A DNA stretch of 32,000 nucleotides from NCBI RefSeq assembly GCF_007748075.1, contig NZ_CP036280.1, positions 3,180,001-3,212,000 on the forward strand, given 5' to 3'. This document shows, one piece after another, positions 1 to 32,000 of this stretch (positions are counted from its first letter, which is position 1; every line of letters begins with the position of its first letter). The position numbers were made by a program, and so were the translations under genes. This DNA is from Mucisphaera calidilacus (lineage in GTDB: Bacteria > Planctomycetota > Phycisphaerae > Phycisphaerales > Phycisphaeraceae). Under the pieces are notes generated by a model. The model saw only the letters and a list, made by a program, of their open reading frames with translations. It had not been told where the DNA came from and searched no databases.

Positions 1-984
1 TTCGAGACGTCGCGTGACGGTGGGGAGGTGGGCGAGTGAGGCGGCGGCGGCGTTGAGGGGGACGTTGAGCTGGTGGGCGACGGCGAGGGCGGCGAGGGTG
101 TTGAAGGCGTTGTGTCTGCCGAGCATGGGGAGGGTGATGTCGACGGTCTGGCCGTGGACGGATGCGGTGAGGGTGGTGCCTTGCGCGGACTGTTTGAGGG
201 TGTCGGGGGTGATGTGGACGGGGGCGGCGGTGTCGTTGTCGTCGTAGAGGATGGGTGTGTGTTGAGCGGCGGTGTCGGGCGTGTGCTGCAGGACGAGGGA
301 CCATGCCTGGGCGGAGGCGATGAGGGTCGCGGGGGGGTGCAGGTGTCGGAGGGCTGAGGTTTCTTCGCGGGTCACGCCTGCGAGGTCGTGGAAGAACTCG
401 AGGTGTTCGGCGCCGAGGGTGGTGAGGACGATGTGGGTGGGTCGGGCGAGTTGTGCGAGGGGTTCGAGTTCGCCCGGGTGGTTGGTGCCGAGTTCGGCGA
501 GGAGGAAGTCGTGGCGGGGCTGTGCGTGGAGGAGGGTGAGGGGTACGCCCAGGTGGTTGTTGAAGGACTTGGGTGATTGGGAGCCGTTGAGGGTGGGTGT
601 GAGTGCGGTGTGGATGAGTTGGCGGGTGGTGGTTTTGCCGTTGGAGCCGATGACGGCGATGACGGGTTGGCGGAGGGAAGTGCGGTGTTGTGCGGCGGCG
701 TGGTGGAGGGCCGCGAGGGTGTCGGGGACGCGGAGGGTTGGGCCGGGGGCGGGTGCTGGTCGGGCGACGAGTGCGGCGGCGGCGCCGGCGGCGAAGGCTG
801 CGTCGAGGTAGTCGTGGCCGTCGGCGTTGGGTGTGGTGAGTGCGATGAAGACGTTGCCGGGCTGGAGGGTTCGGGTGTCGAAGGAGAAGCCTGAGATGGG
901 CAGGTCGGGGTTGGGGGGCGGGTCGGACCATGTTCCCCGGGTGGCGGCGGCGAGGTCTTTGAGGGTGGTAACGGGTGTGGTCAT
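1..984 (-). CDS. murF: UDP-N-acetylmuramoyl-tripeptide--D-alanyl-D-alanine ligase (MurF), N-terminal ~328 codons; the 3' end lies beyond the left edge
   Basis: The minus-strand frame is open from the ATG at 984-982 (ATGA overlap with the murE stop) to position 1. My translation reads MTTPVTTLKDLAAATRGTWSD...ISGFSFDTRTLQPGNVFIALTTPNADGHDYL...VIAVIGSNGKTTTRQL...LAELGTNHPGELE, which is Mur-ligase P-loop and MurF-like layout. It is missing from the ORF track because it has no in-window stop. It sits directly downstream of murE, as in dcw clusters. Confidence 0.85.
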   Translation of the reverse strand, partial: MTTPVTTLKDLAAATRGTWSDPPPNPDLPISGFSFDTRTLQPGNVFIALTTPNADGHDYLDAAFAAGAAAALVARPAPAPGPTLRVPDTLAALHHAAAQHRTSLRQPVIAVIGSNGKTTTRQLIHTALTPTLNGSQSPKSFNNHLGVPLTLLHAQPRHDFLLAELGTNHPGELEPLAQLARPTHIVLTTLGAEHLEFFHDLAGVTREETSALRHLHPPATLIASAQAWSLVLQHTPDTAAQHTPILYDDNDTAAPVHITPDTLKQSAQGTTLTASVHGQTVDITLPMLGRHNAFNTLAALAVAHQLNVPLNAAAASLAHLPTVTRRLE

Positions 985-2546
985 GGTTTAGCCCTGTCGG
1001 CGAGGGCGTTTGAGGCGTGTTCGCGGTCGTCGAAGGGGTGCCGGCTGCCTTGGATTTCCTGGTAGGTCTCGTGGCCTTTTCCGGCGATGAGGATGGTGTC
1101 GTCGGGATGAGCGGTGGTGATGATGTGGTGGATAGCGGCGGCGCGGTCGGGTTCGGTGGTGATGCGGTTTCGGGTCTCGGCGGGGATGTCGGTGAGGGCG
1201 TCGTTGATGATGGCGAGGGGGTCTTCGGAGCGAGGGTTGTCGGATGTGAGGGTGATGTGGTCGGCGTAGCGAGCGGCGGCGAGGGTCATGAGGGGGCGTT
1301 TGGCGCGGTCGCGGTCGCCTCCACAGCCGAAGAGGGTGAGGAGTCGTCGCGGAGCGAGGGCCTTGAGGGTTTGCGAGGCGTGTTCGAGGGAGTCGGGTGT
1401 GTGGGCGTAGTCGACGAAGACCTTCGGAATCGCCCCCGGATACGCCCCCGGATCTGCCCCCGGATTTCCTCCGGGCGTATGTGTGGAGGTGGGTCTGTGT
1501 TGGGTGGCTGATGGGGGGAGGACGCGTTCGAGTCGGCCGGGGACGGGTGGGAGGTTGTGGAGGGCTTGTTGGAGGTTGTCGGGCAGGTGGTTGAGTGCGG
1601 CGGCGGCGGTGAGTGCCTGGAGGAGGTTGGCGACGTTGTGGTCGCCAAGGATGGGGAGGTTGGTGGTGATGGATCCCCAGGGTCCGGTGAGGGTGGCGGT
1701 GGTGTGGTTGAGGGTTCGCTGGTGGATGGTGGCGGAGGTGTTGGCGTCGGGTGTGTCGGCGGTGGTGGTTCGGTGGATGGTGGCGTGGGTGTTGGCGGCC
1801 ATGCGTTGGGCGTGGGGGTCGTCGGCGTTGAGGATTGCGTGGGCGTGTGGGGTGAGGTTGTCGAAGAGTCGTGCCTTGGCCTGGGCGTAGGCGGTCATGG
1901 TTTTGTGGTAGTCGAGGTGGTCCTGGGTGAGGTTGGTGAAGATGGCGGCGGCGGGGTGGAGGTGGTCGGTTCGTTGCTGGTGGAGGGCGTGTGAGGAGGC
2001 TTCGTAGACGGCGGCGTGTCCGCCCTGGTCGCGGATGGTTGCGAGGAGTCGGGTGATCTCGATGCTTCCCGGGGTGGTGAGGGCCGCGGGGAGGGTGTCG
2101 GTGATGAGGTCGTTGTGGATGGTGCCGAGGAGTCCGGTGGGGATGCCGTCGGCTTTGAGGAGGTGCTGGAGGTAGAGGGCGGTGGTGGACTTGCCGTTGG
2201 TGCCGGTGACGGCGGCGAGGGTGAGGTGTTTTGCGGGGTGGTTGAAGAAGCGGTCGGCGAGTTGTCCGCAGAGTTTCTGGTCGATGGTGTCGGCGAGAAA
2301 GGTGGGGACGGGTTCTCGGACGTGCTTCTGGTTATCGGGCGTGACGAGGAGTGCGGCGGGCTGTCGGCTGAGGGCGTCGCGTAGGTCTTCGGGGTGGTCG
2401 GATCGTCGGTGGATGAAGAGGTGTTGGGGTGTGACCCGGCGTGAGTCGTCGGTGAGGTCGGCGGTGTGGACAGCGTCGCCGAGGGGATCGGCGTGGATGG
2501 GGAGTCCGCGGAAGAGGTCGGGGAGAGGTCTGTCCACCGTGGTCAT
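981..2546 (-). CDS. murE: UDP-N-acetylmuramoyl-L-alanyl-D-glutamate--2,6-diaminopimelate ligase (MurE)
   Basis: 521-aa ORF with the P-loop AVTGTNGKSTT, VDYAHTPDSL, LTSDNPRSEDP (the DNPR motif of meso-DAP-adding MurE) and IAGKGHETYQ. Its stop overlaps the murF start. Confidence 0.9.
   Translation of the reverse strand: MTTVDRPLPDLFRGLPIHADPLGDAVHTADLTDDSRRVTPQHLFIHRRSDHPEDLRDALSRQPAALLVTPDNQKHVREPVPTFLADTIDQKLCGQLADRFFNHPAKHLTLAAVTGTNGKSTTALYLQHLLKADGIPTGLLGTIHNDLITDTLPAALTTPGSIEITRLLATIRDQGGHAAVYEASSHALHQQRTDHLHPAAAIFTNLTQDHLDYHKTMTAYAQAKARLFDNLTPHAHAILNADDPHAQRMAANTHATIHRTTTADTPDANTSATIHQRTLNHTTATLTGPWGSITTNLPILGDHNVANLLQALTAAAALNHLPDNLQQALHNLPPVPGRLERVLPPSATQHRPTSTHTPGGNPGADPGAYPGAIPKVFVDYAHTPDSLEHASQTLKALAPRRLLTLFGCGGDRDRAKRPLMTLAAARYADHITLTSDNPRSEDPLAIINDALTDIPAETRNRITTEPDRAAAIHHIITTAHPDDTILIAGKGHETYQEIQGSRHPFDDREHASNALADRAKP
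1426..1473. repeat. 12-nt tandem repeat (about 4 copies), in frame inside murE
   Basis: The plus strand reads ggaatcgccccc / ggatacgccccc / ggatctgccccc / ggatttcctccg. On the coding (minus) strand this encodes GGNP-GADP-GAYP-GAIP within the segment between GRLERV and KVFVDYAHTP. Confidence 0.85.
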
Positions 2547-2622
2547 GGTAATCGGGTCGGGTTGCTTAGACCGTGACTACAGGATGTGGGTGGGTTGGTA
2601 TGTCGGAACGAGATGTGGTGTT

Positions 2623-2817
2623 TCAGGCGGCGACGCGTGTGGTGACGGCGGGGATGGTGGTGTTGCGTGTCCAGGTGGAGGCGGGTCCGCGTCGTTGCTG
2701 GAGGCTGAGGCGTCGGAGGTAGTCGTGGAGGGTGGTTTCGTCGAATCGGGTGAGGAACTCTTCCGAGGCGGTGCGGTTGACGCGGCGGATGGATTCGATG
2801 AGTTGGAGCTTGCTCAT
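2623..2817 (-). CDS. small hypothetical protein (64 aa), upstream of murE
   Basis: ATG at 2817-2815. The product MSKLQLIESIRRVNRTASEEFLTRFDETTLHDYLRRLSL... has normal, non-low-complexity composition. This contrasts with the R/H/T/P-rich remainder of the 833-aa track ORF it belongs to. I recognise no family. Confidence 0.4.
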   Translation of the reverse strand: MSKLQLIESIRRVNRTASEEFLTRFDETTLHDYLRRLSLQQRRGPASTWTRNTTIPAVTTRVAA

Positions 2818-3465: not shown

Positions 3466-5229
3466 ATGAAATGGAGCGTGATGATGTTTGAGGGATGGAC
3501 GCGAGGTTTGCTGGGTCTGGTGGTGGCAGGGGCTTTGTTGTTGACGGGTTGCAAGGAGTCGGAGCCTGAGGCGGACCTGGTGTTTATTGAGGCGGCGGCG
3601 CACCGGACGCTTGATCCGCAGAGCATGTCGTGGAACCACGACATCCGGATCGCGAGCACGGTGTTTGAGCCTTTGGTGCGGATGGATTTTGTGAAGGGTG
3701 ACGTGGAGCCGGCGGCGGCCGCGTCGTGGGCGGTGAGTGAGGACGGGCTGACCTACACGTTTTCGCTTCGCGAGGGGATTCGGTGGTCGAACGGTGATCC
3801 GGTGTTGGCGTCGGATTTCGTGTTTGCGTGGCGTCGCGCGTTGCTGCCTGACACGGCGGCGCAGTATGCGGAGTTGATGTACTGCATCGAGGGCGCGGCT
3901 GACTTTTACGCGTGGCGGACGGAGCAGGTGGGTGCTTATGCGGAGGCGGGCGCGGCCACGGAGGAGGCGGCGCAGCGTTCGTTGGAGGAGGCGTTTGCGC
4001 GGTTTGAGGAGGTGGTTGGTGTTCGTGCGGTGGATGAGGTGACGCTTGAGGTTCGTCTGGAGCGTCCGACGCCTTACTTTTTGCAGATGGTCGGCTTCGC
4101 GACTTTTTTGCCGGTGCACCCGGCGTCGGTGGTTGCGGACACGCGTCTGAACGCGGAGACGGGATTCTGGAAGACGGAGACGTCGTACTGGAGTGACCCG
4201 ACGCGTTTGGTGAGTAATGGTCCGTTCACGATCGAGAAGCGTGTGTTCAAGCAGTATCTGCGTCTGAGGAAGAACCCGATGTACTGGGACGCGGGGCGGA
4301 TTCGTTTGAACTCGATTCTGGAGAAGATCGTGGAGGACCCGGGTACGGGTTTCATGATGTATCACCAGGGCGAGGCGGACTTGTCGTTTGGTATTCCGTC
4401 GCAGGGGACGCTGGCGACGGAGTTGCTGGCGTCGGATCGTGGTGATGTGCACTCGATGGTTGCGGCGGGGACGTATTTTTACAATTTCAATTGTCTGCCG
4501 ACGCGTCCGGACGGATCGGTGAATCCGCTGGCGGACGTTCGCGTTCGGAGGGCGTTGTCGATGGCGATTGACCGGGAGCAGTTGGTGTCGCGGGTGAATC
4601 GTGTGGGTCAGCCGGTGGCGCGGAGTTTCGTGCCGCCCGGAGCGGTGCCCGGGTATGAGCCGCCTGTGGAGTCGGGTGTGGTTTATGACCCGTCGGCGGC
4701 GCGTGAGCTTCTGAAGGAGGCGGGGTACGAGGGTGGTGAGGGTCTGGACGGGTTGTCGATTCTGTACAACACGGGCGGCGGTCACGAGGACGTGGCGATC
4801 GCGGTGAAGTCGATGTGGGAGCGTGAGCTGGGCGTGGTGGTGACGACGGAGGGTGTGGAGGTTCGGACGTTCGGGGATCGTGTTCGCAAGCAGGATTATT
4901 CGATTGCGCGTGCGGCGTGGTTCGGTGATTACGTGGATCCGACGACGTGGCTGGACAAGCATCGATCGACGAACGGGAACAATGATGCGAAGTGGAACAG
5001 CGCGGCGTTCGACGCGTTGCTGGACGAGGCGGCGTTGATTCGTGATCCGGCGGAGCGTTTCGCGAAGCTGGCGGAGGCGGAGGCGTTGCACAATTACGAG
5101 CAGCCGATTGCCCCGGTGTATCACTACGTGACGATTTATCTGTTTGACCCGGAGAAGGTGAAGGGTGTGTCGTTGAACACGTGGGCTCGTTGGCGATTTG
5201 ACCGCATGTGGGTGGAGCGTGACAGATGA
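3466..5229 (+). CDS. ABC transporter substrate-binding lipoprotein, family 5 (peptide/nickel, OppA/DppA-like)
   Basis: 587 aa. Signal peptide with lipobox LLLTGC. Family-5 SBP-like sequence throughout (e.g. WSNGDPVLASDFVFAWRR, PYFLQMVGFATFLPVH, KNPMYWDAGRIRL). The stop overlaps the permease start (ATGA). Confidence 0.9.
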   Translation: MKWSVMMFEGWTRGLLGLVVAGALLLTGCKESEPEADLVFIEAAAHRTLDPQSMSWNHDIRIASTVFEPLVRMDFVKGDVEPAAAASWAVSEDGLTYTFSLREGIRWSNGDPVLASDFVFAWRRALLPDTAAQYAELMYCIEGAADFYAWRTEQVGAYAEAGAATEEAAQRSLEEAFARFEEVVGVRAVDEVTLEVRLERPTPYFLQMVGFATFLPVHPASVVADTRLNAETGFWKTETSYWSDPTRLVSNGPFTIEKRVFKQYLRLRKNPMYWDAGRIRLNSILEKIVEDPGTGFMMYHQGEADLSFGIPSQGTLATELLASDRGDVHSMVAAGTYFYNFNCLPTRPDGSVNPLADVRVRRALSMAIDREQLVSRVNRVGQPVARSFVPPGAVPGYEPPVESGVVYDPSAARELLKEAGYEGGEGLDGLSILYNTGGGHEDVAIAVKSMWERELGVVVTTEGVEVRTFGDRVRKQDYSIARAAWFGDYVDPTTWLDKHRSTNGNNDAKWNSAAFDALLDEAALIRDPAERFAKLAEAEALHNYEQPIAPVYHYVTIYLFDPEKVKGVSLNTWARWRFDRMWVERDR

Positions 5230-6164
5230 TCCGACTGATCCTTTTACGGCTGTTGCAGATGCCTTTGATTCTGACGGTGATTCTGCTGGTGACGTTCACG
5301 CTGGCGTGGGTGGTGCCGGGGAATCCGCTGGAGCGTCCGGAGGGCCAGCGTCCGCCGCCTGAGGTTCAGGAGGCGATGAAGCGTCAGTACAACCTGCACA
5401 GCCCGACGGCGTTTCTGACGAGTTATGTGAAGAACGTGACGGTGGGGAGCGAGCAGTACGGGTGGCCTGATTTCGGTCCTTCGCTTCGGTACACGGATCA
5501 GCGTGTGTCGGACATTATTGGTCAGGCGTTGCCTGTGAGTGCTGCTTTGGGTGTGGCGGCGTTGGGGGTGGCGTTGTTTCTGGGGACGCTGGCGGGTGTG
5601 GTGGGGGCGTTGCGTCCGAACAGCTGGCTGGACATGGCGAGTCTGGGCGTGGCGTTGATTGGCGTGAGTCTGCCTAACTTCGTGACGGGTTCGATTCTGC
5701 TGATTGTGTTTGCGGGTTTGCTGGAGTGGTTCCCGGTGGGTGGGTGGGGGAGTCCTCAGCAGGTGGTGCTGCCTGCGATCGCGTTGGGTTTTTTCCCGGC
5801 GGCGTATGTGGCGCGTCTGGTTCGTCTGGGTCTGGCGGACGTGATGAGCAGTGATTTTGTGCGGACGGCACGTGCGAAGGGTTTGAGTCATTTTGCGGCG
5901 TTGTTCCGTCATGCGTTGAAGGTGGCTTATCTGCCGGTGCTGAGTTTCATGGGTCCTGCGGCGGCGTCGGTGATGACGGGTTCTTTTGTGATTGAGAAGG
6001 TGTTCGCGATCCCGGGGATGGGTGACTATTTCGTGAACGCGGTTTTGAACAAAGATCAGTTTTTGATCCTGGGTGTGGTGCTGACCTACGCGACGCTGCT
6101 GGTGTTGTTCAATCTGGTGGTTGATGTGGCGTATGCGTGGGTGGACCCTCGGATTGAGTTGTGA
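5226..6164 (+). CDS. ABC transporter permease, DppB/OppB-like
   Basis: 312 aa. N-terminus MIRLILLRLLQMPLILTVILLVTFTLAWVVPGNP and the EAA-loop-like region SDFVRTARAKGLS are typical of OppB/DppB permeases. Confidence 0.9.
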   Translation: MIRLILLRLLQMPLILTVILLVTFTLAWVVPGNPLERPEGQRPPPEVQEAMKRQYNLHSPTAFLTSYVKNVTVGSEQYGWPDFGPSLRYTDQRVSDIIGQALPVSAALGVAALGVALFLGTLAGVVGALRPNSWLDMASLGVALIGVSLPNFVTGSILLIVFAGLLEWFPVGGWGSPQQVVLPAIALGFFPAAYVARLVRLGLADVMSSDFVRTARAKGLSHFAALFRHALKVAYLPVLSFMGPAAASVMTGSFVIEKVFAIPGMGDYFVNAVLNKDQFLILGVVLTYATLLVLFNLVVDVAYAWVDPRIEL

Positions 6165-6229
6165 GTGAGGGCGTTGCGGGATTGCCGTGTGGCTGGCAAG
6201 ATGGCGTGAGTTGCGGCCTCGGGAGCGTC

Positions 6230-6365
6230 GGGCTATCTTAAGACCCCCAAGTCGCTTGAAAGCGATTTCCTACCCTCAAGGCAGCCCGGTCACGGGCGGC
6301 CGCTGGAGAGGATCCCCGGTAACCCAGCACGGCTCCGTGTCGGCCCTGATTGAAAGGACGGCGTC
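6230..6365 (+). promoter_or_regulatory. candidate structured 5' leader or unclassified RNA element upstream of the epimerase/decarboxylase operon
   Basis: The G>>C skew is lost locally: spot counts are G16/C22 for 6241-6300 and G20/C19 for 6301-6360. Several short stems are present: tcgct-tga-agcga near 6252-6264, cccg-gtca-cggg near 6285-6296, gctgg...ccagc near 6302-6329, and cacg-gctc-cgtg near 6329-6340. I recognise no Rfam family. Confidence 0.3.
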
Positions 6366-6779
6366 ATGATCGAAGCAAAGGCGGTCAATCACCTCGGTAT
6401 CGCGGTGCGTTCGATTGCGGATCACAAGCAGTTTTACGTGGACGTGCTGGGTGCCGAGTATGAGGCGGAGGAAGTGGTTGAAGAGCAGAAGGTGAAGGTG
6501 GGCTTCTTCAAGGTGGGTGATGTTCGTCTGGAGTTGTTGGAGCCGACGAGCGAGGACTCGCCGATCTCGGCGTTTCTGGAGAAGCGTGGGGAGGGTTTGC
6601 ACCACGTTGCGTACACGGTGAGTGGTTTGGAGGATCGTCTGGCGGCGTTGAAGGCGGGCGGTGTTCGCCTGATTGACGAGACGCCTCGGAACGGTGCTCA
6701 CCACACGAAGATTGCGTTTCTGCACCCGAAGGCGTCGTGTGGCGTTCTGACGGAGTTGTGTGAGCCGAAGGGCGACTGA
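6366..6779 (+). CDS. mce: methylmalonyl-CoA epimerase (VOC/glyoxalase fold)
   Basis: 137 aa. NHLGIAVRSI..., RLELLEPTSEDSPISAFLEKRGEGLHHVAY and IAFLHPKASCGVLTELCE match methylmalonyl-CoA epimerases. The pathway context is consistent. Confidence 0.9.
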   Translation: MIEAKAVNHLGIAVRSIADHKQFYVDVLGAEYEAEEVVEEQKVKVGFFKVGDVRLELLEPTSEDSPISAFLEKRGEGLHHVAYTVSGLEDRLAALKAGGVRLIDETPRNGAHHTKIAFLHPKASCGVLTELCEPKGD

Positions 6780-6829
6780 TTTGGCGTCGTCATTCGGTTA
6801 GCCCGGAACTTGAACAAGGATCGTAAACG

Positions 6830-8401: not shown

Positions 8402-8416
8402 GAAGGGAATGTCTTG

Positions 8417-10747: not shown

Positions 10748-10767
10748 CGACTAAGGAGTGCCCGATC

Positions 10768-23713: not shown

Positions 23714-24343
23714 ATGAATTTTTCAGAGGATCGTGATCTGCTGGCGTATGAGCCGGAGGTGTTTTCGGAGGTTCCGTTTGCGGCGCAGGAGCGTGTGTCG
23801 ATTGCGGACGGTGTGGTTACGGGTTCGGTGCTGAGCAGCGTGTCGGCGGACTTCGTGGCGGCCGGGGTTTCGGCGGGGTGCGTGGTGCTGCTGGATCGTG
23901 TGGCGCACGAGGTGGTGGAGGTGCTGGACGGGCAGTCGCTTCGGGTGTCGCGGCTGCGGGTGCGTGCGTCGGATGCGTTGGTGTCGGCGGCGGAGGGTGA
24001 GGGTGTGGCGGTTCGGGTGCGGACCTTTGCGGCGCAGGCGTCGCTGGTGCACGACCTGTTGCTGCGTCTGCTGGGGCTGGAGGGTGAGGATGGTCTGGGA
24101 GAGGGTTCGGTGGTGTCGCTTGGCGCGGTGTGTCGGCTGGAGTGCCTGGGGGCGCTTGAGCTGATTTACAGCGCGGCGGCGTCGGTGGGAGGGGCGAACG
24201 AGTCGGTGCTGGCGAAGTCGGCGTTGTACCGCGGCCGATTCCGGCGTGCGTGTCGTGAGACGACGGTGGGCGTGGACGTGGATGGCGACGGGCTGGCTGA
24301 TGAGCGTCGGGGTTTGGGGCTGGTGTCGCTGGTGCGTGCGTGA
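23714..24343 (+). CDS. hypothetical phage-cluster protein (possible head-tail adaptor, by position only)
   Basis: 209 aa from ATG 23714 (MNFSEDRDLLAYEPEVFSEV...). It is a long ORF on the stop-rich plus strand, and the next gene overlaps its stop (GTGA). Confidence 0.55.
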   Translation: MNFSEDRDLLAYEPEVFSEVPFAAQERVSIADGVVTGSVLSSVSADFVAAGVSAGCVVLLDRVAHEVVEVLDGQSLRVSRLRVRASDALVSAAEGEGVAVRVRTFAAQASLVHDLLLRLLGLEGEDGLGEGSVVSLGAVCRLECLGALELIYSAAASVGGANESVLAKSALYRGRFRRACRETTVGVDVDGDGLADERRGLGLVSLVRA

Positions 24344-24732
24344 GGGGGTGGTTTGTGCTGAGGTTTGGTGATGGTCAGCTGGCGGGTGAGGGTGAGAGCC
24401 GGTTGTTGTCGCTTGAGCGTGTAACGCGTGTTCGGCGGGGCGACGGGTTGGGTGGTGTCGCTGTGGTGGTGGCGTCTGGCGAGGCGGCGACGGTGGTGCG
24501 TTATTCGGTGACGGTGCGTTGCGCGTCGTCGGCGGCGATGGATGCGGCGGTGGACGGGGTGTTGTCGTGGTCGGACGGTGTTGAGCGTGTGCTGGAGGAT
24601 GGTTCGGGTCGGCGGTGGCGTGACGCTTTGCTGGTGCGTGCGGAGGTGGCTTCGTGCGGGCGGGTGGGGTTGTTGTGGGGCTGCGGGCTGGTGCTGGTGT
24701 TTGAGACGGGCGGGATGGTGCGTGATGCCTGA
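24340..24732 (+). CDS. hypothetical phage-cluster protein
   Basis: 130 aa. GTGA overlap with the upstream gene and an 8-nt overlap with the downstream gene. No recognised family. Confidence 0.5.
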   Translation: MRGWFVLRFGDGQLAGEGESRLLSLERVTRVRRGDGLGGVAVVVASGEAATVVRYSVTVRCASSAAMDAAVDGVLSWSDGVERVLEDGSGRRWRDALLVRAEVASCGRVGLLWGCGLVLVFETGGMVRDA

Positions 24733-25417
24733 GGTGGGTGCGGTGCCTGCGGGTCTGTTGATGACGGCGGTGATGGAGGGTTCGGACGAGCACGCGGAGG
24801 CGGTTCGGATCGGCTGGGCCGAGCCGCTGGCTGCGGGTCGTGCGGTGGTGGTGTGGGTGGATGGGGAGGTGGCGGCGTGGACGGGCCACGAGGGTGATCG
24901 TTGGTTGTGGGTGTTGATGGATCGTCGGATGGCGCATCGGGTGGCGGTGCGGGAGTTGGGTCTGGAGGCGTTGCTGGGCGGCGGTGTGGTGGCGGCGGAG
25001 GCGGACGGTCTTCGTGTGGTGCGTGACACGTCGTGGCCGGTGGATGCGGGTCTGCGTGTGTCGGGTGACGGGGGTGCGTTGGCGTGTGCGGTGTGGCCGG
25101 CGGACGTGGCGCGTGAGGGCTTCGGCAGCCGTTTTGGGGTTGGGCCGTTTGGTGTTGAGGGTGAGGGCGGGCCGGGCCTGGGCGGCGGGATTCTGGGTGA
25201 TGGCGGTCTGGGTTCTGGCGGAACGGCGGTCGTGGTGGATGGTTCGGTTCGGCGGCGGCTGGGCGGGCGTGTTTGTGTTTCGGTGGTGGGTGAGGGTGGT
25301 GGTGTGGTGAGTGAGGCGTGTGTGGAGGCTGTGCCGCTGGGCGACGGCGTGTCGGTGGGCGGTGCCGTGGTTGAGGGTGGGGTAATGCGTGTGCGCGATC
25401 GTGAGGTGTTGCGATGA
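24725..25417 (+). CDS. hypothetical phage-cluster protein
   Basis: ATG at 24725 within track ORF 24542..25417 (MPEVGAVPAGLLMTAVMEGSDEHAEAV...). The stop overlaps the next start (ATGA). No recognised family. Confidence 0.5.
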   Translation: MPEVGAVPAGLLMTAVMEGSDEHAEAVRIGWAEPLAAGRAVVVWVDGEVAAWTGHEGDRWLWVLMDRRMAHRVAVRELGLEALLGGGVVAAEADGLRVVRDTSWPVDAGLRVSGDGGALACAVWPADVAREGFGSRFGVGPFGVEGEGGPGLGGGILGDGGLGSGGTAVVVDGSVRRRLGGRVCVSVVGEGGGVVSEACVEAVPLGDGVSVGGAVVEGGVMRVRDREVLR

Positions 25418-26586
25418 GTGAGTGGAGTCCTGAGGACCGTGTGTTGCTGGCGCAGGTTGAGGATGCGGCGACGGGTGTGCCTTACATCGAGACGGGTCGT
25501 AGTCCGTACTACGCGGAGTTTCGTCGGATGGTGGAGCGGCTGGCGCGGGTTGCGGAGCGTGGGAACGACCTGCGTGTTTATCGAGACGGGTTGTTGTCGG
25601 TGGGTGTGCGTGGCGGTCGGTGTCGGGTTGCGGGGGCGTGTCATGAGGTCGCGTCGGTGGCGGGGATGGCGGTGGTGGGCCATGGGTTGACGCGGGTGTG
25701 GGTGGACGCATCGGGTGAGGTGCGGGTGTCGGTGGATGCGTTTCCGGAGGATCGGTCGGCGCACCTGCGTCTGGCGGAGGTGTTTGCGGAGGAGGGTGCG
25801 GTGGTTTCGATCACGGACCTTCGGGGCGAGACGCAGCTTCAGTCGGTGGACGCGAGCGTGCTGGGTCTGACGGCGACGGTGGCGGAGCTTGATCGCGTGG
25901 TGGCGGGTGTTGATGCGGGGGTGACTTCGTCGGCGCTGGGTGTGTTGTGCGGGGGTCCGATGTCGGTGGCGGACGCGTACCACGGTCACGCGGGTTATCA
26001 GTCGGATGAGGATGCGGAGGTGTCGTTTACGGTTCGCAATGCGTCGTCGGGCTCGGCGGCGGGCGTGATGTTGTCGCTGAGTCTTCCTGCGTGGTTGAGC
26101 GAGCCGACGCGGCTGCGTGTTCGGCGTGAGGGCGGGTGGCTGGAGCAGGAGGTCGGGGGGACGGGTTATGCGTTGGTGGGCGGTGTTCCGCTGGCGCTGG
26201 TTCTGCCTGGTGTTCTGACGGGTTCGGTGGTGGATCGTCTGGTGGGTGTTGTGCCTTGCGACGGGACGGTGGCGGGTGTGGTGCTGAGTGTGGGCAGGCA
26301 TCTGCAGACGTCGGAGGTGTTGGATGGTCTTGAGGTTTCGCTGCGTGTGAACGGGCGGTTGTTGACGGACACGCCTGCGCGTCTGCGGGTTTCGGACGGG
26401 GTGTCGAATCTGTGCACGGACGCGGGGGATGGCGAGGCGGCGTTGATGTTTGAGGATTCGGTGTGCGCTGTGTCGCGTGGGGAGTTGGTGACGGCGACGA
26501 TCACGCGTACGGCGTCGGGCGTGGTGAGTCAGGAGGCGGAGGACGTGGCGGTGCTGGTGCTGATGCGTTCGGGTCGTGTGATCTGA
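25414..26586 (+). CDS. hypothetical phage-cluster protein, 390 aa; its N-terminal ~150 aa are paralogous to the next gene
   Basis: Long plus-strand ORF. The shared module includes DAATGVPYIETGRSPYY ... LRVY ... VGVRGGR ... AHLRLAEVFAEEGAVVSITDLRGE. The C-terminal part looks beta-rich. Confidence 0.6.
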   Translation: MSEWSPEDRVLLAQVEDAATGVPYIETGRSPYYAEFRRMVERLARVAERGNDLRVYRDGLLSVGVRGGRCRVAGACHEVASVAGMAVVGHGLTRVWVDASGEVRVSVDAFPEDRSAHLRLAEVFAEEGAVVSITDLRGETQLQSVDASVLGLTATVAELDRVVAGVDAGVTSSALGVLCGGPMSVADAYHGHAGYQSDEDAEVSFTVRNASSGSAAGVMLSLSLPAWLSEPTRLRVRREGGWLEQEVGGTGYALVGGVPLALVLPGVLTGSVVDRLVGVVPCDGTVAGVVLSVGRHLQTSEVLDGLEVSLRVNGRLLTDTPARLRVSDGVSNLCTDAGDGEAALMFEDSVCAVSRGELVTATITRTASGVVSQEAEDVAVLVLMRSGRVI

Positions 26587-26599
26587 GAGGGGATGAGCG

Positions 26600-27064
26600 A
26601 TGACGATTTCGGTTGGTGACCTGGATGAGGCGTCGGTGGAGGCGTTGGCGGGGACGCGTGATGCGGCGACGGGTTTTGAGTATGCGGAGCGTGGTCGTCA
26701 TCCGTATTACCGGTGGCTGATGAACACGCTGCGGTTGTTGTCGGCTTCGTCGCTGGGTGATTTCCGGGTGTTGTCGGCGTCGGAGGCGGAGGGGTTTCCC
26801 GCGGTGACGGTGCTTGGGGGTCGTGCGTCGCTTGGGGGTGTTGTGGTGGCGTATGAGGGCGGTTTGTTTGACCTGTCGCTGATGAACAACGCGGTCGTGT
26901 TTGTGTGGCTGCGTGCGGTGTCGGGTGCCGCGGTGGTGGAGGTGGGCGCGGAGGCTGACGGTTGGCCTGGCGGCGTGCACCTGAAGCTGGCGGAGGTCGA
27001 GGTTTCGGGCGGGCGTGTTGTCTCGGTGCTGGATCGTCGGAAAGAGGTCGTGCTTTCGGTCTGA
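26600..27064 (+). CDS. hypothetical phage-cluster protein, 154 aa; stand-alone copy of the module at the N-terminus of the preceding protein
   Basis: DAATGFEYAERGRHPYY ... FRVL ... VTVLGGR ... VHLKLAEVEVSGGRVVSVLDRRKE aligns by eye with the upstream protein. ATG follows gagagggg. Confidence 0.6.
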   Translation: MTISVGDLDEASVEALAGTRDAATGFEYAERGRHPYYRWLMNTLRLLSASSLGDFRVLSASEAEGFPAVTVLGGRASLGGVVVAYEGGLFDLSLMNNAVVFVWLRAVSGAAVVEVGAEADGWPGGVHLKLAEVEVSGGRVVSVLDRRKEVVLSV

Positions 27065-27081
27065 GAGGTGGCGGTGTGGTG

Positions 27082-27825
27082 ATGAGGCTGGTGGATTTTG
27101 AGGTTGCGGGCTGGGGTGAGTTCGGCGGGTCGGGTCCGGTTGAGCGGGCTTCGTATGCGGAGCGTGTGTTGTCTTTGGGGCCTGCGGGTTACTGGCGGCT
27201 GGGCGATGACGGGCCTGGGGTTGCGGACCGTGCGGGCGGGCCGGCAGGGCTGGTGACGGGCGGTGGGGTCACGGGTGTGGCGGGTTCGCTCGGGTGTGAT
27301 GTCGATGGCGCGATGCGTTTTGAGGGGAGCGGAGCGGTTGCGGTGGGTCGTGGTGTTCTGCCTGCGGATGGTTCGGCGGTGACGATCGGGTGTCGGGTGC
27401 GTATGACCGCGGCGGTGAAGGGTGTGCTGGTGAGTCAGTACGAGCAGAGCGGGGGTGTTGCGGACCCGCAGCGGTTCGGTCTGCGTGTGAGTGCGGAGGG
27501 CTGCGTGGGCTGGTGGAAGGGCGGGGTCATGCTGGCGGAGAGTGCGGTGTCGGTGTCGGATGGCGATTGGCATTCGGTGGTCGGGTCGCGGTCGGGCTCG
27601 GGCGATGTGGTGTTGTGGGTGGATGGCGAGGTTGCGGCAGGGGGGAGCGACGGCCAGGGGTTTCAGGCAACGGAGACGACGCTCGGGTGTTTCCCGGGCG
27701 TGTTCTCGCTGACGGGCGCGTTGGATGAGGTGTTCGTGGTGCCCGATGTGGTTGAAGCGGAGGCGGTGCGGTCGTTGCACGCGATGGCGGTTGGTGTGCC
27801 TGAGGTGATCGGGGGTGCGGCGTGA
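27082..27825 (+). CDS. LamG / concanavalin-A-like lectin domain protein
   Basis: ATG at 27082 inside track ORF 26962..27825. YWRLGDDG..., AMRFEGSGAVAV, VTIGCRVRM, DGDWHSVVGSRSGSGDVVLWVDGE and LTGALDEVFVV follow the Laminin_G_3 pattern. Confidence 0.7.
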   Translation: MRLVDFEVAGWGEFGGSGPVERASYAERVLSLGPAGYWRLGDDGPGVADRAGGPAGLVTGGGVTGVAGSLGCDVDGAMRFEGSGAVAVGRGVLPADGSAVTIGCRVRMTAAVKGVLVSQYEQSGGVADPQRFGLRVSAEGCVGWWKGGVMLAESAVSVSDGDWHSVVGSRSGSGDVVLWVDGEVAAGGSDGQGFQATETTLGCFPGVFSLTGALDEVFVVPDVVEAEAVRSLHAMAVGVPEVIGGAA

Positions 27826-29894
27826 CGAGGATGGTTCAGGACGCGGCGGCGCGGTTCGAGGATTTCGGGACGCGTGGTGTTCGGCTGGAGGTGGATGGTG
27901 ATCTGCGCGGTGTGGTGTGTGGTTTAGAGCTTGCCGGTGGCGGTTCGGAGGTGCACGTTCGTCTGGCGGTGCGGGCGTCGGGGTTGACGGCGGGTCGTGT
28001 GGTGGTGTTGGGGTGCGGGTCGGCGGAGGGCGCGGTGTGGTGGCTGGAGGCGGACGCGGGGCTGGGTGCCTTGGTGCTGCGCGTGCGTGATGGCGGGTCG
28101 GTGGTGTGGCCGTGGTCGCGTGGGCCGTCGTGGAGTGTGGTGGAGGTGGGGGCGTCGGCTGCTGAGGATGTGTTGCGGCTTCAGGTCAACGGGGTTGAGG
28201 TGGGTGTGTTGCCGGGGGTGAGTGTCGGGTCGCTTGCGGCGTTGGATGTGGGTGTGTTGTGGCGGAGCGGCGATGCGGCGGGCGTGGTTGATGTTGACCG
28301 GCTGGCGGTGGGTGACGGGCCGATCGGCGTGGATGGGGTTGCGTCGTCGGATGAGGGTGTTGCGGGGGCGTCGCGTTGGGTGGTGTTGTATCGGCCTGAC
28401 GATCCGGATTCGGTGGCGTGGGTGGAGGCGTACCGGTCGCGGAGGGGTGTGCCTTACGCGAACCTGATCCCGGTGGTGACGACGGGGGAGGAGGTGGTGG
28501 ACGAGGCGGGGTATGCGTCGCTGGTGGATCAGGTGCGTGGTTATCTGGAGCGGCATGGTCTGGCGGATCGTGTGGCGGGTGTCCTGGTGGGTTACGGGGT
28601 GCCGAGTTATGTGTCGCTGGTATTTGAGCGTGTGCGGCTGCCGATTTCCTCGTTGCTGGCGACGGACGCGTTGGCGTTGACGTCGGTTGAGAACCCATTG
28701 CTGGGTCGGGCGGAGCGGTTGGAGGTTGTGGATTGTGCGGGTGCTCGGATGGGCGCCCGGTGTGACGGGGCGACGCTAGCGGAGGCGTTGTCGCTGATTG
28801 ACCGAGCGGATGCGGTGATGGCGGGTTCGCTTCGGGACGCGGGTGCGGCGCGTCTGTGGGTGGACACGGAGGGGCCGCTGGGAGACTTGGCGGGTACGAC
28901 GCGGGCGCGTCACGCGGCGTTCGTGGCGGGTGATGTGGCGTGCGCGACGCGGATGGAGGTGATGTCGGGTGCGTTTGATCGTGTGGAGGGTGAGGGGTTG
29001 GCGTGGACGGGGTTGTCGGGGGCGTATCCGGAGGGGTTCTTCGGTGGGTCGGGTGGTCCGCGTGTCCTGTTCGGGCAGGTGAGTCTGGCGGCGTGTGGTT
29101 TGAGTTCGGTGCGTGGGGTGGTGGACGGTTCGGCGTGGGCGCGGGGAGCGATCGAGGCGGGTTATGCGGCGGTGGTAGGAACGGGCGGGACGTATGGTTC
29201 GTCGGAGGTTCCGCGAGTGGATGTGCTGGTTGATCGGCTGCTGTGTGGGTGGACGCTTGGTGAGGCGTGGCAGGTTTGTCTGCCGAGGCTGCGGAACGTG
29301 GTGGGGCTGGTGGGTGACCCGTTGATGGTTGTGCCGATGTCGGGCGCGGGCTGGGACCTGGTCGCGGGTGATGACGAGGGCCTGGGGGCGGCGGCGGCGT
29401 GTCGTCGCGTGGCGGATGAAGCGGCGCGTCTGCCTGAGGGGGCTGAGGGCGTGCGGCGACGGTGGCTGGTGGCGGCGCGTGGTGTTGATGGTTCGCTGAG
29501 CGATGGCGTGCGTGGCGTGGGTGTGGTTTACGAGGGCGGGTCGTGGCGGCGGCGTGTGGTGGACTGGGTGTGGCCTGAGGCGGCGGGCTGGTTGTTGGCT
29601 GCGGATCGTGAGGGTCTGCGGGGTGTGGTGATCTGGCCTTGTGGTCTGCGGGAGGCGGGTGTGGTCTCGGCGGAGCTTGAGGCGGAGCGTGCGGGCGGGG
29701 TGACGGTGTCGTCGCTGGGGGTTGATCCGGGGTCGGATCGGCTGGGGTTTGTGGCGGCGATGCCTGATGAGCGTGTGCGTTATCGCGTCCGTGTGCGGAC
29801 GTCGGAGGGTGTGGTGTCGGAGACGCCCTGGTCGGCCTGGTGGGAGCCTGAGGCGGCGGGTGTGGCGCCGGTGGTGCTGGGAGGTGCGGGATGA
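27822..29894 (+). CDS. 690-aa multidomain protein: N-terminal beta-sandwich (LamG-like), central TIGR03790-like region, C-terminal FN3/Ig-like segment
   Basis: GTGA overlap with the LamG gene. The central segment RWVVLYRPDDPDSVAWVEAYRSRRGVPYANLIPV...LVGYGVPSYV resembles my memory of the uncharacterised TIGR03790 family. The C-terminal RYRVRVRTSEGVVSETPWSAWWEP is FN3-like. Confidence 0.6.
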   Translation: MTRMVQDAAARFEDFGTRGVRLEVDGDLRGVVCGLELAGGGSEVHVRLAVRASGLTAGRVVVLGCGSAEGAVWWLEADAGLGALVLRVRDGGSVVWPWSRGPSWSVVEVGASAAEDVLRLQVNGVEVGVLPGVSVGSLAALDVGVLWRSGDAAGVVDVDRLAVGDGPIGVDGVASSDEGVAGASRWVVLYRPDDPDSVAWVEAYRSRRGVPYANLIPVVTTGEEVVDEAGYASLVDQVRGYLERHGLADRVAGVLVGYGVPSYVSLVFERVRLPISSLLATDALALTSVENPLLGRAERLEVVDCAGARMGARCDGATLAEALSLIDRADAVMAGSLRDAGAARLWVDTEGPLGDLAGTTRARHAAFVAGDVACATRMEVMSGAFDRVEGEGLAWTGLSGAYPEGFFGGSGGPRVLFGQVSLAACGLSSVRGVVDGSAWARGAIEAGYAAVVGTGGTYGSSEVPRVDVLVDRLLCGWTLGEAWQVCLPRLRNVVGLVGDPLMVVPMSGAGWDLVAGDDEGLGAAAACRRVADEAARLPEGAEGVRRRWLVAARGVDGSLSDGVRGVGVVYEGGSWRRRVVDWVWPEAAGWLLAADREGLRGVVIWPCGLREAGVVSAELEAERAGGVTVSSLGVDPGSDRLGFVAAMPDERVRYRVRVRTSEGVVSETPWSAWWEPEAAGVAPVVLGGAG

Positions 29895-31543
29895 GGATGG
29901 CGGAGGGTTCGCTGGGTCGTGTGGTGCGTGATCGTGGCCTGCTGGTGGTTGTGGACGGTCGGGTGGTTGAATCGGCGCGAGTGACGTCGATGTCGTCGTG
30001 TTTGCCGCTTGGCGGGTGCGAGGCTGAGGTTGAGGTAGAGGTTGAACGTGGTGCGGGTTCGGTGCGCGAGGTTGTGATCGGGGAGCCTTATCGGCTTGGC
30101 GATGCGCGTGTGGGGCTGCGTCGGCTGGTGGTGGGTGGTTTGGTTGAGGATGTGGGGCGTGGTGATCGGTCGGGTTTGCGGCGGTGCTGGCGTGTGCGTG
30201 ATCGCTGGATGCGGTTGCTGGATCAGGAGCTTGCGTCGCTGCCGGGGTGGTGGCTGTTGTCGGACGCGGGTTCGCTCGGCGTCGGGGCGGATGCGAATCG
30301 GTCGGCGACGTCGGTGGATGTGGATGGGCGTTCGGTGTATCGGCCTGGGGGCGGGTTGCGTTGGACGGCGGGTAAGGCGTTGGGATTGTTGCTGGCGGTG
30401 GCGGGTGTTCGCGTCGTCTGGCTGGTCGATCGGGGTCGGCTGGATCGTGTGCTGGAGCGTGATGTTGTGCTGTCGGGTCGGTTGCGTGGTGTGCTGTCGT
30501 TGCTGGCTGAGGACCACGGGTTGGTGCTGCGGTGGGACGAGCGGCATGGCGTGGTCGAGGTGGGTGTTCGTGGTCATCGGGGTCGGCGGGTGAGTTATCC
30601 GTTGGGTGGTGATGAGCGGCGTCGGCCGAGGTGGTCGGTGGTGTCGGGCGGTGTTTCGGGGCGGTCGGTGCGTGGGGTATGTCGTTCGTCGGGTTGGCGT
30701 GTGGAGTCGACGTTTGAGCTGCGTCGTGGCTGGGACCCGGGGCTGGAGGGGTTGGCGGATGATCAGTACGACCCGGAGACGTCGGACGATTTCACGTCGG
30801 TGTCGTCGGTCTTTCGTCGTTGGGTGTTGAACGAGGACGGGGCGTATTCGGGTGCGCCGTATGGTTTGCCGGCCTATGACCTGAGCGCGTTGTTTGATGA
30901 CGAGCGTGTGGGCGCGTGTTCGCTTAGGTTTCGTGCTCCGCTGACGCGTGACACGGATGGCGACCCGCTGCCGGTGCTGGTGGAGGTGAGTGAGGATGGG
31001 GGTTTGCGTTGGCGTGTCGTGGCGGATCGTCTGCTGTTGAGGGATCGCGCGGGGGTCGATCTGACGGGCCTGTTGGCGGGATCGGATTACCTGGCGGCGG
31101 CTCGTGCGGGGACGGTTCGGTGTCGGGTGACGGCGCGGCTTGATTCGCCTCGTGCGGTGGAGGCGGTTCGGTGGTGGGGCAACGCGTTCACGGGGGTTCA
31201 CGAGGACGTGGTGTTTGATGCGGGGCGTCGGTTTGTTTTTGCGCGGGTGGACCGGACGAGTCGTTTCTGGTCGCGGGTTCGGTCGGGGGCGCGTGTTGCG
31301 GCGGAGCGTGATGATCGAGAGCGGATGCGTCGTTGGCTGTTAGAGCGGCTTGAGGGGGGTGCTTCGGCGTCGCGGGTGCGTCTGGAGGCGTCGGGTCGCG
31401 AGACGTGGCTGCGGCCTGGCGACCGGTTGTGTGTGGGTGCGCTGGGCGGCCGGACGGTGTTGTGCGAGCGTGTGGGCTGGTCGGCGGGTGCGGGGCGTGC
31501 GGTGCGGTCGGTGATCGAGGGGCGATTGGAGGGTGTCAGATGA
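29891..31543 (+). CDS. 550-aa hypothetical phage-cluster protein (tail or baseplate candidate, by position only)
   Basis: ATGA overlaps at both ends and a long ORF on the stop-rich strand. I recognise no family. Confidence 0.55.
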   Translation: MRMAEGSLGRVVRDRGLLVVVDGRVVESARVTSMSSCLPLGGCEAEVEVEVERGAGSVREVVIGEPYRLGDARVGLRRLVVGGLVEDVGRGDRSGLRRCWRVRDRWMRLLDQELASLPGWWLLSDAGSLGVGADANRSATSVDVDGRSVYRPGGGLRWTAGKALGLLLAVAGVRVVWLVDRGRLDRVLERDVVLSGRLRGVLSLLAEDHGLVLRWDERHGVVEVGVRGHRGRRVSYPLGGDERRRPRWSVVSGGVSGRSVRGVCRSSGWRVESTFELRRGWDPGLEGLADDQYDPETSDDFTSVSSVFRRWVLNEDGAYSGAPYGLPAYDLSALFDDERVGACSLRFRAPLTRDTDGDPLPVLVEVSEDGGLRWRVVADRLLLRDRAGVDLTGLLAGSDYLAAARAGTVRCRVTARLDSPRAVEAVRWWGNAFTGVHEDVVFDAGRRFVFARVDRTSRFWSRVRSGARVAAERDDRERMRRWLLERLEGGASASRVRLEASGRETWLRPGDRLCVGALGGRTVLCERVGWSAGAGRAVRSVIEGRLEGVR

Positions 31544-31800
31544 GTGGGCTGGAGTTGGCGCCGCTGGCGCAGCTGGGTGCGGCGGGACTGATGGGCGCGT
31601 TGTGGGTGTGGGAGCGGAACCTGACGCGTTGCCGGGAGCGTGAGCTGAGTGAGGCTCATGAGCGTCTGATGGTTCAGCGTGAGGCGTTGCAGGAACTGGT
31701 GGCGTTGGTGGGTCAGAACGCGCGGGCGTTGGAGGGTTTTGAGCAGACGCAGAATCGGCTGGCTCGTGCGGTGGAGCGTCTGGCGGCCAGGGGTGCGTGA
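31540..31800 (+). CDS. small N-terminal-TM, coiled-coil protein (i-spanin-like or holin-like)
   Basis: ATG at 31540 (ATGA overlap) inside track ORF 31405..31800. Product MSGLELAPLAQLGAAGLMGALWVW, followed by about 60 aa of helical, charged sequence. Confidence 0.45.
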   Translation: MSGLELAPLAQLGAAGLMGALWVWERNLTRCRERELSEAHERLMVQREALQELVALVGQNARALEGFEQTQNRLARAVERLAARGA

Positions 31801-31819
31801 TAGCGATTAAACTGGGTGG

Positions 31820-32000
31820 ATGACTGGCGTGTACCGAGTCGTGATGGTGTTGGTGTTCCTGCTGTCGCTGGGGTGGGTTTCGGGTTGCGGCCAGGGCGAC
31901 GGTACGTCGGCCTTCGGTGAGCCTCCGCCGACGGGCACGTGGTATCCCGAGCCGGTGGCGTTGCGTATTCACCCGTCGACGCGTTACGTGCAGGAGGGGG
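31820..32000 (+). CDS. putative lipoprotein, N-terminal fragment (runs off the right edge)
   Basis: My translation reads MTGVYRVVMVLVFLLSLGWVSGCGQGDGTSAFGEPPPTGTWYPEP... It has the lipobox VSGC and a Pro-rich mature N-terminus. The frame is open to the window end. Confidence 0.45.
   Translation, partial: MTGVYRVVMVLVFLLSLGWVSGCGQGDGTSAFGEPPPTGTWYPEPVALRIHPSTRYVQEG

Follow-up and report, generated by a model that had tools for sequence, protein, structure and literature searches.

What makes one strand of a bacterial chromosome rich in G and T over tens of kilobases, whichever strand carries the genes, is the question raised by a 32,000-nucleotide (nt) stretch of the Mucisphaera calidilacus chromosome (NZ_CP036280.1, positions 3,180,001 to 3,212,000; this whole stretch is called the window below). 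Its plus strand contains 13,735 G, 6603 C, 7413 T and 4249 A, which gives a G+C content of 63.6%, a GC skew of +0.351 (a G:C ratio of 2.08:1, with (G-C)/N = 0.223) and an AT skew of -0.271, T exceeding A on the G-rich plus strand. By arithmetic from these counts, the surplus of G over C amounts to about 50 binomial standard deviations. An earlier reading of the sequence (the original prediction) had called this asymmetry far beyond that of ordinary bacteria, and the four 60-nt spot counts it gave are exact (G34/C10 at 1-60, G28/C6 at 3481-3540, G24/C14 at 16021-16080 and G30/C12 at 25021-25080). The judgement is borne out by a 32 kb control segment of Escherichia coli K-12 (1.000-1.032 Mb; GC skew 0.043, (G-C)/N 0.022), by SkewDB, where the skew effect is "typically around 2.5%" per nucleotide (PMC8941118) against 22.3% in the window, and by the third-position table of Lawsonia intracellularis considered below.

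The asymmetry is unbroken along the window. By kilobase the GC skew ranges from 0.12 to 0.50, and not one of 316 sliding 500-nt segments falls below zero, in agreement with the claim that no skew switch occurs within the 32 kb; the lowest segment (0.0, at 14301) lies inside a DUF3800 gene, the highest reaches 0.59, and toward the right end of the window the skew is 0.38-0.46, with no decay up to base 32000. Tandem repeats can be rejected as the source of the skew, as the window has only eight short arrays that cover a few hundred bases, well under 1 kb. No tRNA or Rfam features are present in the window.

The asymmetry is bound to the DNA strand and not to gene orientation. Seven genes lie on the minus strand (murF, murE, lgt, rnr, a HEAT-repeat gene, a sigma-54 activator gene and the open reading frame (ORF) at 2623-2856) and the rest on the plus strand. 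Of 25 genes, 24 have a positive GC skew at third codon positions (GC3 skew) in plus-strand terms, the sole exception being the DUF3800 gene (-0.01), and the corresponding AT3 skew is negative in all 25; the GC3 skew is +0.53 for plus-strand genes and +0.76 for minus-strand genes, and the AT3 skew -0.81 and -0.71, respectively. Pooled third positions of the plus-strand genes are A.025, C.175, G.564 and T.236, and those of the minus-strand genes, on their own coding strand, are A.178, C.697, G.094 and T.030; read on the plus strand, the latter have the same ranking as the former, G >> T > C >> A. Third and four-fold degenerate positions are far more skewed than other sites. Read on the plus strand, the four-fold sites are A.023, C.107, G.635, T.235 in plus-strand host genes, A.021, C.077, G.659, T.243 in the plus-strand phage-like genes, and A.031, C.053, G.755, T.161 in minus-strand genes. 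The skews at these sites (GC4 and AT4) are thus +0.71 to +0.87 and -0.68 to -0.84 in both orientations, and from these values the G/A ratio is about 60-70-fold apart between the two DNA strands. Because the plus-strand sign is the same in both gene orientations, the asymmetry follows the DNA strand and not transcription, as had been claimed from the spot counts. When the GC3 skew is decomposed, the DNA-strand (replication) component is 0.645 and the coding-strand component -0.12 (C-ending codons favoured); for the AT3 skew the two components are -0.76 and -0.05.

Within the window the GC3 skew varies by gene class and not monotonically. The most skewed part (0.47-0.51) is murF plus murE (1..2546, minus strand), whose coding strands are rich in C and A. 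The coding strands of the minus-strand rnr, HEAT-repeat and sigma-54 activator genes (15284..20364) are C-rich, with GC3 skews of +0.59 to +0.78 in plus-strand terms. The plus-strand host genes between 3466 and 13102 use G- and T-ending codons, and the metabolic genes among them have the lowest GC3 skew, 0.31-0.37.

The consequences for codon usage and protein composition are large. Over the genes of the window, the codon tables of plus-strand genes and of minus-strand genes are nearly disjoint, so that the strand-specific codon usage proposed in the original prediction is real: plus-strand genes use GCG for 83% of alanine, GTG for 73% of valine, ACG for 93% of threonine, CTG or TTG for 87% of leucine, GAG for 96% of glutamate and AAG for 96% of lysine codons, whereas minus-strand genes use GCC (71%), GTC (87%), ACC (82%), CTC (90%), GAA (77%) and AAA (77%) for the same amino acids. 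The pressure has also dragged along the first and second codon positions (G1.46 in plus-strand against.33 in minus-strand genes; G2.24 against.155; C2.245 against.29), and hence amino-acid usage. Plus-strand host proteins have more glycine (9.4 vs 5.6%), valine (10.0 vs 4.7%) and tryptophan (1.3 vs 0.6%) than minus-strand host proteins, and less threonine (4.6 vs 7.6%), histidine (2.1 vs 4.0%), glutamine (2.8 vs 4.4%) and asparagine (2.6 vs 3.8%). The expected contrast between G, V, W and E on the one side and T, H, P, Q and N on the other is therefore found, but arginine, which had been placed with the former group, reaches a high level in the phage-like genes alone (10.3%; 5.4% in plus-strand and 7.8% in minus-strand host genes). 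Phage-like cluster proteins contain up to 44% G+V+W+C+F.

Single proteins compared with their homologs show the same effect. With the composition balance expressed as GVWCF minus PTHQNK (amino acids with G/T-rich against those with C/A-rich codons), M. calidilacus MurE (GVWCF 10%, PTHQNK 37%) ranks first among 120 homologs, and the MurE proteins of the Mucisphaera clade occupy ranks 1-4, with balances of -0.25 to -0.27 against a median of -0.05. Among 83 RNase R orthologs, the balance correlates with the GC3 skew of the gene (Pearson r = 0.42, p = 7e-5), and the rnr gene of the window has the most extreme coding-strand GC3 skew of all of them (-0.78).

The DUF3800 gene provides an internal control. 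It is the only gene of the window without GC skew at third positions, although its AT3 skew is already -0.50, and it is not in the relatives; lgt abuts rnr in Mucisphaera sp. and in the metagenome-assembled genome (MAG) contig JAVKCD010000019. It is a recent horizontal insertion whose GC skew has not yet ameliorated, and its lack of GC skew speaks for a mutation pressure acting over time and against an artefact that affects all sequence alike.

The asymmetry is inherited across the Mucisphaera clade. The relatives compared are Mucisphaera sp. (a 3.25-Mb ENA long-read contig, ctg28227), two NCBI MAGs and one Logan assembly; their MurE proteins are 61-71% identical to that of the window, and the loci are syntenic. 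The murE-region loci have whole-locus GC skews of 0.35-0.38 and GC3 skews of 0.53-0.80 in both gene orientations, the region from rnr to the phage-like cluster has GC skews of 0.21-0.25 in Mucisphaera sp. and one of the MAGs, and for the Logan relative the value in the cluster is 0.24. The suspicion of an assembly artefact, which had been raised together with the claim, is removed by these four independent assemblies, all of which carry the same skew.

Overlapping loci of the relatives were joined into composites of 51.7 kb and 31.3 kb, and the polarity flip looked for as a sign of replication is found in two relatives, but not in the window of M. calidilacus itself. In JAVKCD010000019 the all-site skew has a magnitude of about 0.33, reaches zero at ~722-723 kb and then takes the opposite sign (0.15-0.27); its four-fold GC skew, -0.67 at the capsid gene, passes zero and rises to values of +0.57 to +0.74 in genes of both orientations 3-5 kb past glmM. 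In Mucisphaera sp. the four-fold GC skew goes from -0.39 to +0.15 and then +0.39 (~1.108-1.114 Mb), and in the Logan relative the skew falls to about 0 at the end of the contig, which stops at glmM. The switch is gradual over ~10 kb; it sits immediately beyond glmM and the distal end of the phage-like cluster, at a place where genes converge. Such a flip suggests that the skew is replication-linked, with the identity of origin and terminus read from the pattern rather than mapped: as the leading strand is G-rich by general rule and the genes converge, the switch reads as terminus-type (positive to negative in the orientation of the window) and would be the replication terminus of these relatives. 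No dif-like or other non-coding motif was found at the switch, and the 13-mers common to three relatives all lie inside coding regions. In M. calidilacus the window shows no decay and GlmM ranks first of 120 on an index of C/A-codon amino acids (GlmM of the relatives, at the switch, is ordinary), so the switch appears to lie further on in this species. It seems that the putative terminus sits beside the capsid cluster in the relatives and has been moved or sharpened in M. calidilacus.

Farther afield, the rnr loci of 80 Phycisphaerales species have a median |GC skew| of 0.043, a 90th percentile of 0.217 and a maximum of 0.313, with both signs represented; about one eighth exceed 0.2 (for example, Tepidisphaera sp. 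at -0.31 and CTOTU1214 at +0.31). The largest AT skew among them is 0.139, and none comes near that of the window. Strong GC skew may thus be a recurrent, unremarked trait of the Phycisphaerales, with Mucisphaera its extreme, but the T > A component is, among these sequences, peculiar to the Mucisphaera clade.

The joint surplus of G over C and of T over A, the independence of gene orientation, the focus on synonymous sites, the reversal in relatives at a fixed point of the chromosome and the absence from young DNA point together to a replication-associated mutational asymmetry. We consider it likely that the window is part of one replichore under exceptionally strong strand-asymmetric mutation pressure of this kind, the G-rich plus strand presumably being the leading strand. 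G > C combined with T > A is the near-universal leading-strand pattern and has been attributed to cytosine deamination (PMC2031905). The classical explanation of replication-associated asymmetry is that bases are deaminated while the lagging-strand template is transiently single-stranded (Frank and Lobry 1999; Lobry and Sueoka; both as cited in PMC2031905). The original prediction read the window as leading-strand-type G/T enrichment of abnormal strength, and the strand-bound four-fold skew supports this. In such a scheme C->T and A->G deamination, of the classical type, on the strand exposed in single-stranded form while serving as lagging-strand template would enrich the leading strand in G and T at the expense of C and A, perhaps helped by a transversion bias toward G. 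The most likely reason for the unusual strength would be a lineage-specific change in replication or in base-excision or mismatch repair; strong strand bias is said to go with the loss of genes for repair and replication restart (Klasson and Andersson, as cited in PMC2671203). A weak coding-strand preference for C-ending codons may be superimposed. Such a preference would make the minus-strand genes look more skewed than the plus-strand genes and leave highly conserved metabolic genes the least skewed; the lower GC3 skew of the metabolic genes is consistent with residual selection for C-ending codons.

A more specific version, which is possible but which we put forward only tentatively, is that in Mucisphaera, and less so in other Phycisphaerales, a particular change in replication or repair has brought about a mitochondrion-like asymmetric mutation regime in a GC-rich chromosome of 3.5 Mb belonging to a free-living bacterium. 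Candidates within this version are functions lost or altered in uracil or hypoxanthine excision, in 8-oxo-G sanitation, or in lagging-strand priming or restart, and the change would leave template DNA single-stranded unusually long. If so, no stronger strand asymmetry would be known from any cellular chromosome, the proteome would fall into two compositional classes, and one tRNA set would have to serve two codon dialects.

Several observations weigh against replication-associated mutation pressure as the full account. The skew of intergenic DNA falls well short of that at four-fold sites: in the window (~0.8-1.1 kb) its GC skew is +0.26 to +0.33 and its AT skew only -0.02 to -0.06, in the relatives (3 kb) the values are +0.30 and about -0.20, the intergenic AT skews as a whole span -0.02 to -0.23, and the A content of spacers (e.g., 6165-6365, 15071-15283 and 20365-20444) is 16-22% against 2-3% at four-fold sites. 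A neutral equilibrium would give equal or greater skew in intergenic DNA, so the weaker spacer skew counts on the negative side; short spacers are probably constrained or functional, and the weak skew could reflect that constraint or could mean that the four-fold sites are not neutral. The four-fold sites of the plus strand are 66-79% purine, and because deaminations are transitions the two deaminations alone cannot yield this value; a transversion bias or selection is needed in addition. Heat-accelerated deamination is rejected as a cause, since M. calidilacus is no thermophile but grows optimally at 30-33 C (PMC8882080). The reversal in Mucisphaera sp. is weak within the 10 kb at hand, the calls of leading strand and of terminus rather than origin come from the general rule and gene convergence and not from a mapped origin, and the genome-wide extent of the asymmetry in M. 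calidilacus, with its origin and terminus, is extrapolated from the relatives and three proteins. Polarized counts of four-fold substitutions were attempted with the window and its three closest relatives, but identity at these sites is 0.30-0.69, about the level expected from composition only; the sites are saturated, and the direction of substitution cannot be deduced from them.

Selection could in principle keep the asymmetry in place, through polar segregation or repair motifs, avoidance of structure in the lagging-strand template, or matching of codons to tRNAs, in which case the four-fold sites would not be neutral. The gap between four-fold sites and intergenic DNA, the purine (G) excess that deamination leaves unexplained, and the conserved metabolic genes, which deviate in the direction expected for codon selection, all fit this idea. 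However, no known agent acts on nearly all synonymous sites in both orientations with opposite codon outcomes; the phage-like genes, which evolve quickly under weak constraint, show the strongest skew at every codon position, as mutation pressure predicts; and a foreign gene that lacks GC skew fits slow amelioration. Selection is therefore an unlikely explanation.

It is still less probable that the window is a local anomaly, a compositional island of prophage and neighboring DNA in a genome of otherwise modest skew. One third of the window is phage-derived and this third is among its most skewed parts, and the data from this genome comprise about 32 kb and three proteins. Yet the core genes murE, murF, lgt and rnr are equally or more skewed, the phage-like cluster is vertically inherited, and the one demonstrably foreign gene, that of DUF3800, is the one without GC skew. 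In the relatives, moreover, the skew spans at least 36 kb of syntenic housekeeping DNA, to 10 kb past the left end of the window, and at least 10% of the 80 Phycisphaerales genomes have a |GC skew| above 0.2 at rnr, with either sign.

Transcription-associated asymmetry, by exposure of the non-template strand or transcription-coupled repair acting on co-oriented genes, is very improbable here. Transcription-associated skews exist in all bacteria (PMC2031905), and about 70% of the coding bases of the window are on the plus strand, but the sign on the coding strand reverses between plus- and minus-strand genes (G3 56% against C3 70%, T3 24% against A3 18%), the most skewed kilobases are those of the minus-strand murF and murE, and the relatives behave alike on both sides of the switch; Pfam matches exclude mis-assigned gene orientation. 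There is practically no chance that the skew stems from sequencing or assembly, for example from strand-specific base-calling or chemical conversion errors, given long intact ORFs with strong Pfam and homolog matches, the same composition in four assemblies made by other laboratories with other technologies (ENA long-read, two NCBI MAGs and Logan), one gene inside the window without the effect, and a clean polarity flip in relatives.

The plus-strand cluster that occupies the right third of the window (Table 1) encodes an SPP1-type portal protein, an SU10-type major capsid protein, a Laminin_G_3/tail-fiber-like protein and proteins of unknown function, and has skews of 0.27-0.51. It had been taken for a phage cluster; it is indeed phage-derived, but it appears not to be an ordinary prophage, being conserved and syntenic in relatives. 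In three of them the ~12-kb cluster lies between the divergent sigma-54 activator gene and glmM in the order portal, small protein, capsid and on to the Laminin_G_3 protein and two large unknowns, and the same arrangement of portal and capsid genes beside the sigma-54 activator gene recurs in four MAGs that are more distant. In relatives with 64-71% identity in MurE, the capsid protein reaches 85-90%, and more than 100 further proteins, the named sources of which are Phycisphaeraceae or planctomycete MAGs, match it at 67-75% identity; the remaining proteins of the cluster diverge rapidly (51-59% identity). Pfam and PHROGs recognized no terminase, integrase or replication genes in the cluster, and IMG/VR holds no close free-phage relatives of the capsid protein, the nearest capsids being 22-34% identical. 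A search for the sigma-54 promoter TGGCAC-N5-TTGC between the activator and portal genes gave no match, and the window has fewer matches than shuffled sequences. Judged from sequence and synteny, the cluster seems to be a domesticated element passed on by vertical descent, and it may be a gene transfer agent-like particle or some other co-opted capsid machine.

Skew this extreme leads gene prediction astray. With T so scarce on the minus strand, stop codons are less dense there (10-13 per 1000 codons, against 26-34 on the plus strand), which gives rise to long false minus-strand ORFs: 28 ORFs of at least 150 amino acids (aa) that match no real gene are present on that strand, up to 833 aa in length, against 11 on the plus strand, the longest of which (291 aa) is probably real. 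The remark that many spurious ORFs lie on the T-poor minus strand was thus correct. The same problem is evident in a database pair. A Logan contig and the NCBI MAG contig JAVKCD010000019 have identical 21,179-nt sequences but differing gene calls; the automatic gene caller used on the former missed lgt, rnr and the HEAT-repeat and sigma-54 activator genes (locus 1729-7920), all four of which are in the NCBI annotation, and in their place the Logan contig carries nine short Pfam-less ORFs, eight of them on the opposite strand. Skew of this kind may also distort composition-based binning, the detection of horizontal transfer, and phylogeny in the Phycisphaerae.

Among the genes of the window, Pfam confirms MurE, the SBP_bac_5 protein, the permease, Lgt, the DUF3800 protein, the HEAT-repeat protein, the GAF-domain sigma-54 activator, the portal protein and the capsid protein. 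RNase R was identified by tblastn matches to the relatives and by RNB-family Pfam matches of its orthologs, and the other genes of the plus-strand operon are named after the Pfam families of syntenic orthologs in relatives. Two small genes (2623-2856, minus strand, and 2965-3456, plus strand) sit between murE and the binding-protein gene. The plus-strand genes at 6366-13102 for an epimerase, a carboxyltransferase, an OadG-like protein, a biotin carrier and OadB form a complete-looking set for a Na+-pumping methylmalonyl-CoA decarboxylase, followed by birA and an acetyl-CoA hydrolase/CoA-transferase gene, and this order is kept in relatives. The set is a propionate or succinate-type fermentation module, though the organism is described as aerobic.

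Table 1. Features of the 32,000-nt window, with the basis of each call
Feature	Position	Strand	Basis or remark
G+T-rich plus strand and C+A-rich minus strand, unbroken	1..32000	.	Base counts, 500-nt segments, four-fold sites
murF, partial	1-978	-	Third minus frame read directly; runs off left end
murE	981-2546	-	Pfam
Spurious antisense ORF, 833 aa	2623..5124	-	Only the last ~67-78 codons (2623-2856) are a small conserved gene
Small conserved ORF, Pfam-less	2623-2856	-	67-aa gene called at same place in three relatives
Small Pfam-less gene, 151-163 aa	2965-3456	+	Called at same place in three relatives
SBP_bac_5 protein and permease genes	within 3466..13102	+	Pfam
Methylmalonyl-CoA epimerase, carboxyltransferase, OadG-like, BCCP, OadB, BirA and acetyl-CoA hydrolase/transferase genes	within 3466..13102	+	Pfam of orthologs
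lgt	13159..14154	-	Pfam; GC3 skew +0.79 in plus-strand terms
DUF3800 gene	14234..15070	+	Pfam; 53% GC
rnr	15284-17632	-	Matches in relatives; RNB-family orthologs
HEAT-repeat protein gene	17640-18674	-	Pfam
Sigma-54 activator (GAF) gene	18742-20364	-	Pfam
Phage-derived structural cluster	20445..31800	+	Pfam, PHROGs
Further long spurious ORFs	6698-8383, 8843-10669, 23723-25711, 24166-26301, 29780-31201	-	

M. calidilacus Pan265 is a cultured, free-living, mesophilic aerobic heterotroph with a genome of 3.49 Mb (3,486,541 bp) and 63.9% G+C (PMC8882080). The words "skew" and "codon" and the string "asymmetr" do not occur in the species description (PMC8882080), and no report of skew in Mucisphaera or of extreme skew in the Phycisphaerae or Planctomycetes was found in the open-access literature, an absence that is no proof; where "GC skew" is mentioned in papers on Phycisphaerae, it concerns only genome-start adjustment or the legend of a genome map. 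SkewDB very probably contains the M. calidilacus chromosome without comment. As far as could be established, the kind of mechanism is familiar, and its magnitude and the type of genome that hosts it are unprecedented. If the whole replicon is like the window, then here is a culturable free-living bacterium in which synonymous sites on one strand are ~65-75% G and ~3% A, a natural experiment on the limits of mutation pressure in codon usage, tRNA decoding and protein composition. It would also be a tractable system for the still unsettled origin of GC skew.

Among known systems, ordinary bacterial GC skew, which Lobry is said to have described in 1996, has the same sign convention as the skew seen here, and polarity switches of the kind present in the relatives of M. 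calidilacus. The "purine excess" of the PolC-associated Firmicutes and Fusobacteria resembles the window in its GC skew, which ranks with the highest of the conventional kind, and in its strongly G-rich leading strand (PMC2031905, PMC4613354, PMC8941118). In Firmicutes, however, the leading strand is A-rich, and the asymmetry arises largely from an extreme gene-strand bias combined with codon bias (PMC8941118), whereas in the window T exceeds A, the genes are only modestly biased toward one strand, and those on the lagging strand keep the skew.

A closer parallel is offered by genomes of the Borrelia type, in which replication-strand bias was reportedly recognized by McInerney in 1998 and by Lafay in 1999 as the primary determinant of codon usage. 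They share with Mucisphaera a G+T-rich leading strand, separate codon usage of the two strands and amino-acid shifts, independent of gene orientation. A class of ten genomes in which replication-strand bias dominates codon usage has been listed, and includes Borrelia burgdorferi, Treponema pallidum, Chlamydia trachomatis, C. muridarum, Buchnera, Blochmannia, Bartonella, Tropheryma and Lawsonia; all ten are smaller than 2 Mb with 26-52% G+C, many are host-restricted, and small size and low GC content were proposed as preconditions (PMC2671203). In a survey of 1111 genomes, strand bias is weaker the higher the GC content and the larger the genome, and the Planctomycetes have a phylum mean of 0.023, among the lower ones (PMC4613354). 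At 3.49 Mb, 63.9% G+C and free-living, M. calidilacus lies outside these correlates (<2 Mb, at most 52% G+C), which are correlates and not strict definitions, and it contradicts the published generalization that strong strand bias needs a small, AT-rich, host-restricted genome. The replication component of its GC3 skew is 0.645 in the window, against 0.23 computed from the L. intracellularis third-position table (PMC2671203), and that of its AT3 skew is -0.76, against about -0.03 in Lawsonia. The asymmetry of the window is thus about three times that of the classical extreme cases.

In magnitude, the closest analog from general knowledge is vertebrate mitochondrial DNA, whose heavy/light-strand asymmetry is said to have been treated by Reyes in 1998 and by Faith and Pollock in 2003. 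That asymmetry is attributed to deamination of C and A during prolonged single-strandedness, in an organelle genome of 16 kb with a peculiar replication mode and limited repair. As in the window, one strand of vertebrate mitochondrial DNA is comparably G+T-rich, one base is nearly absent from four-fold sites, gene orientation is overridden and protein composition is altered. The two differ in the base most depleted on the G+T-rich strand, which is C in mitochondrial DNA and A in the window.

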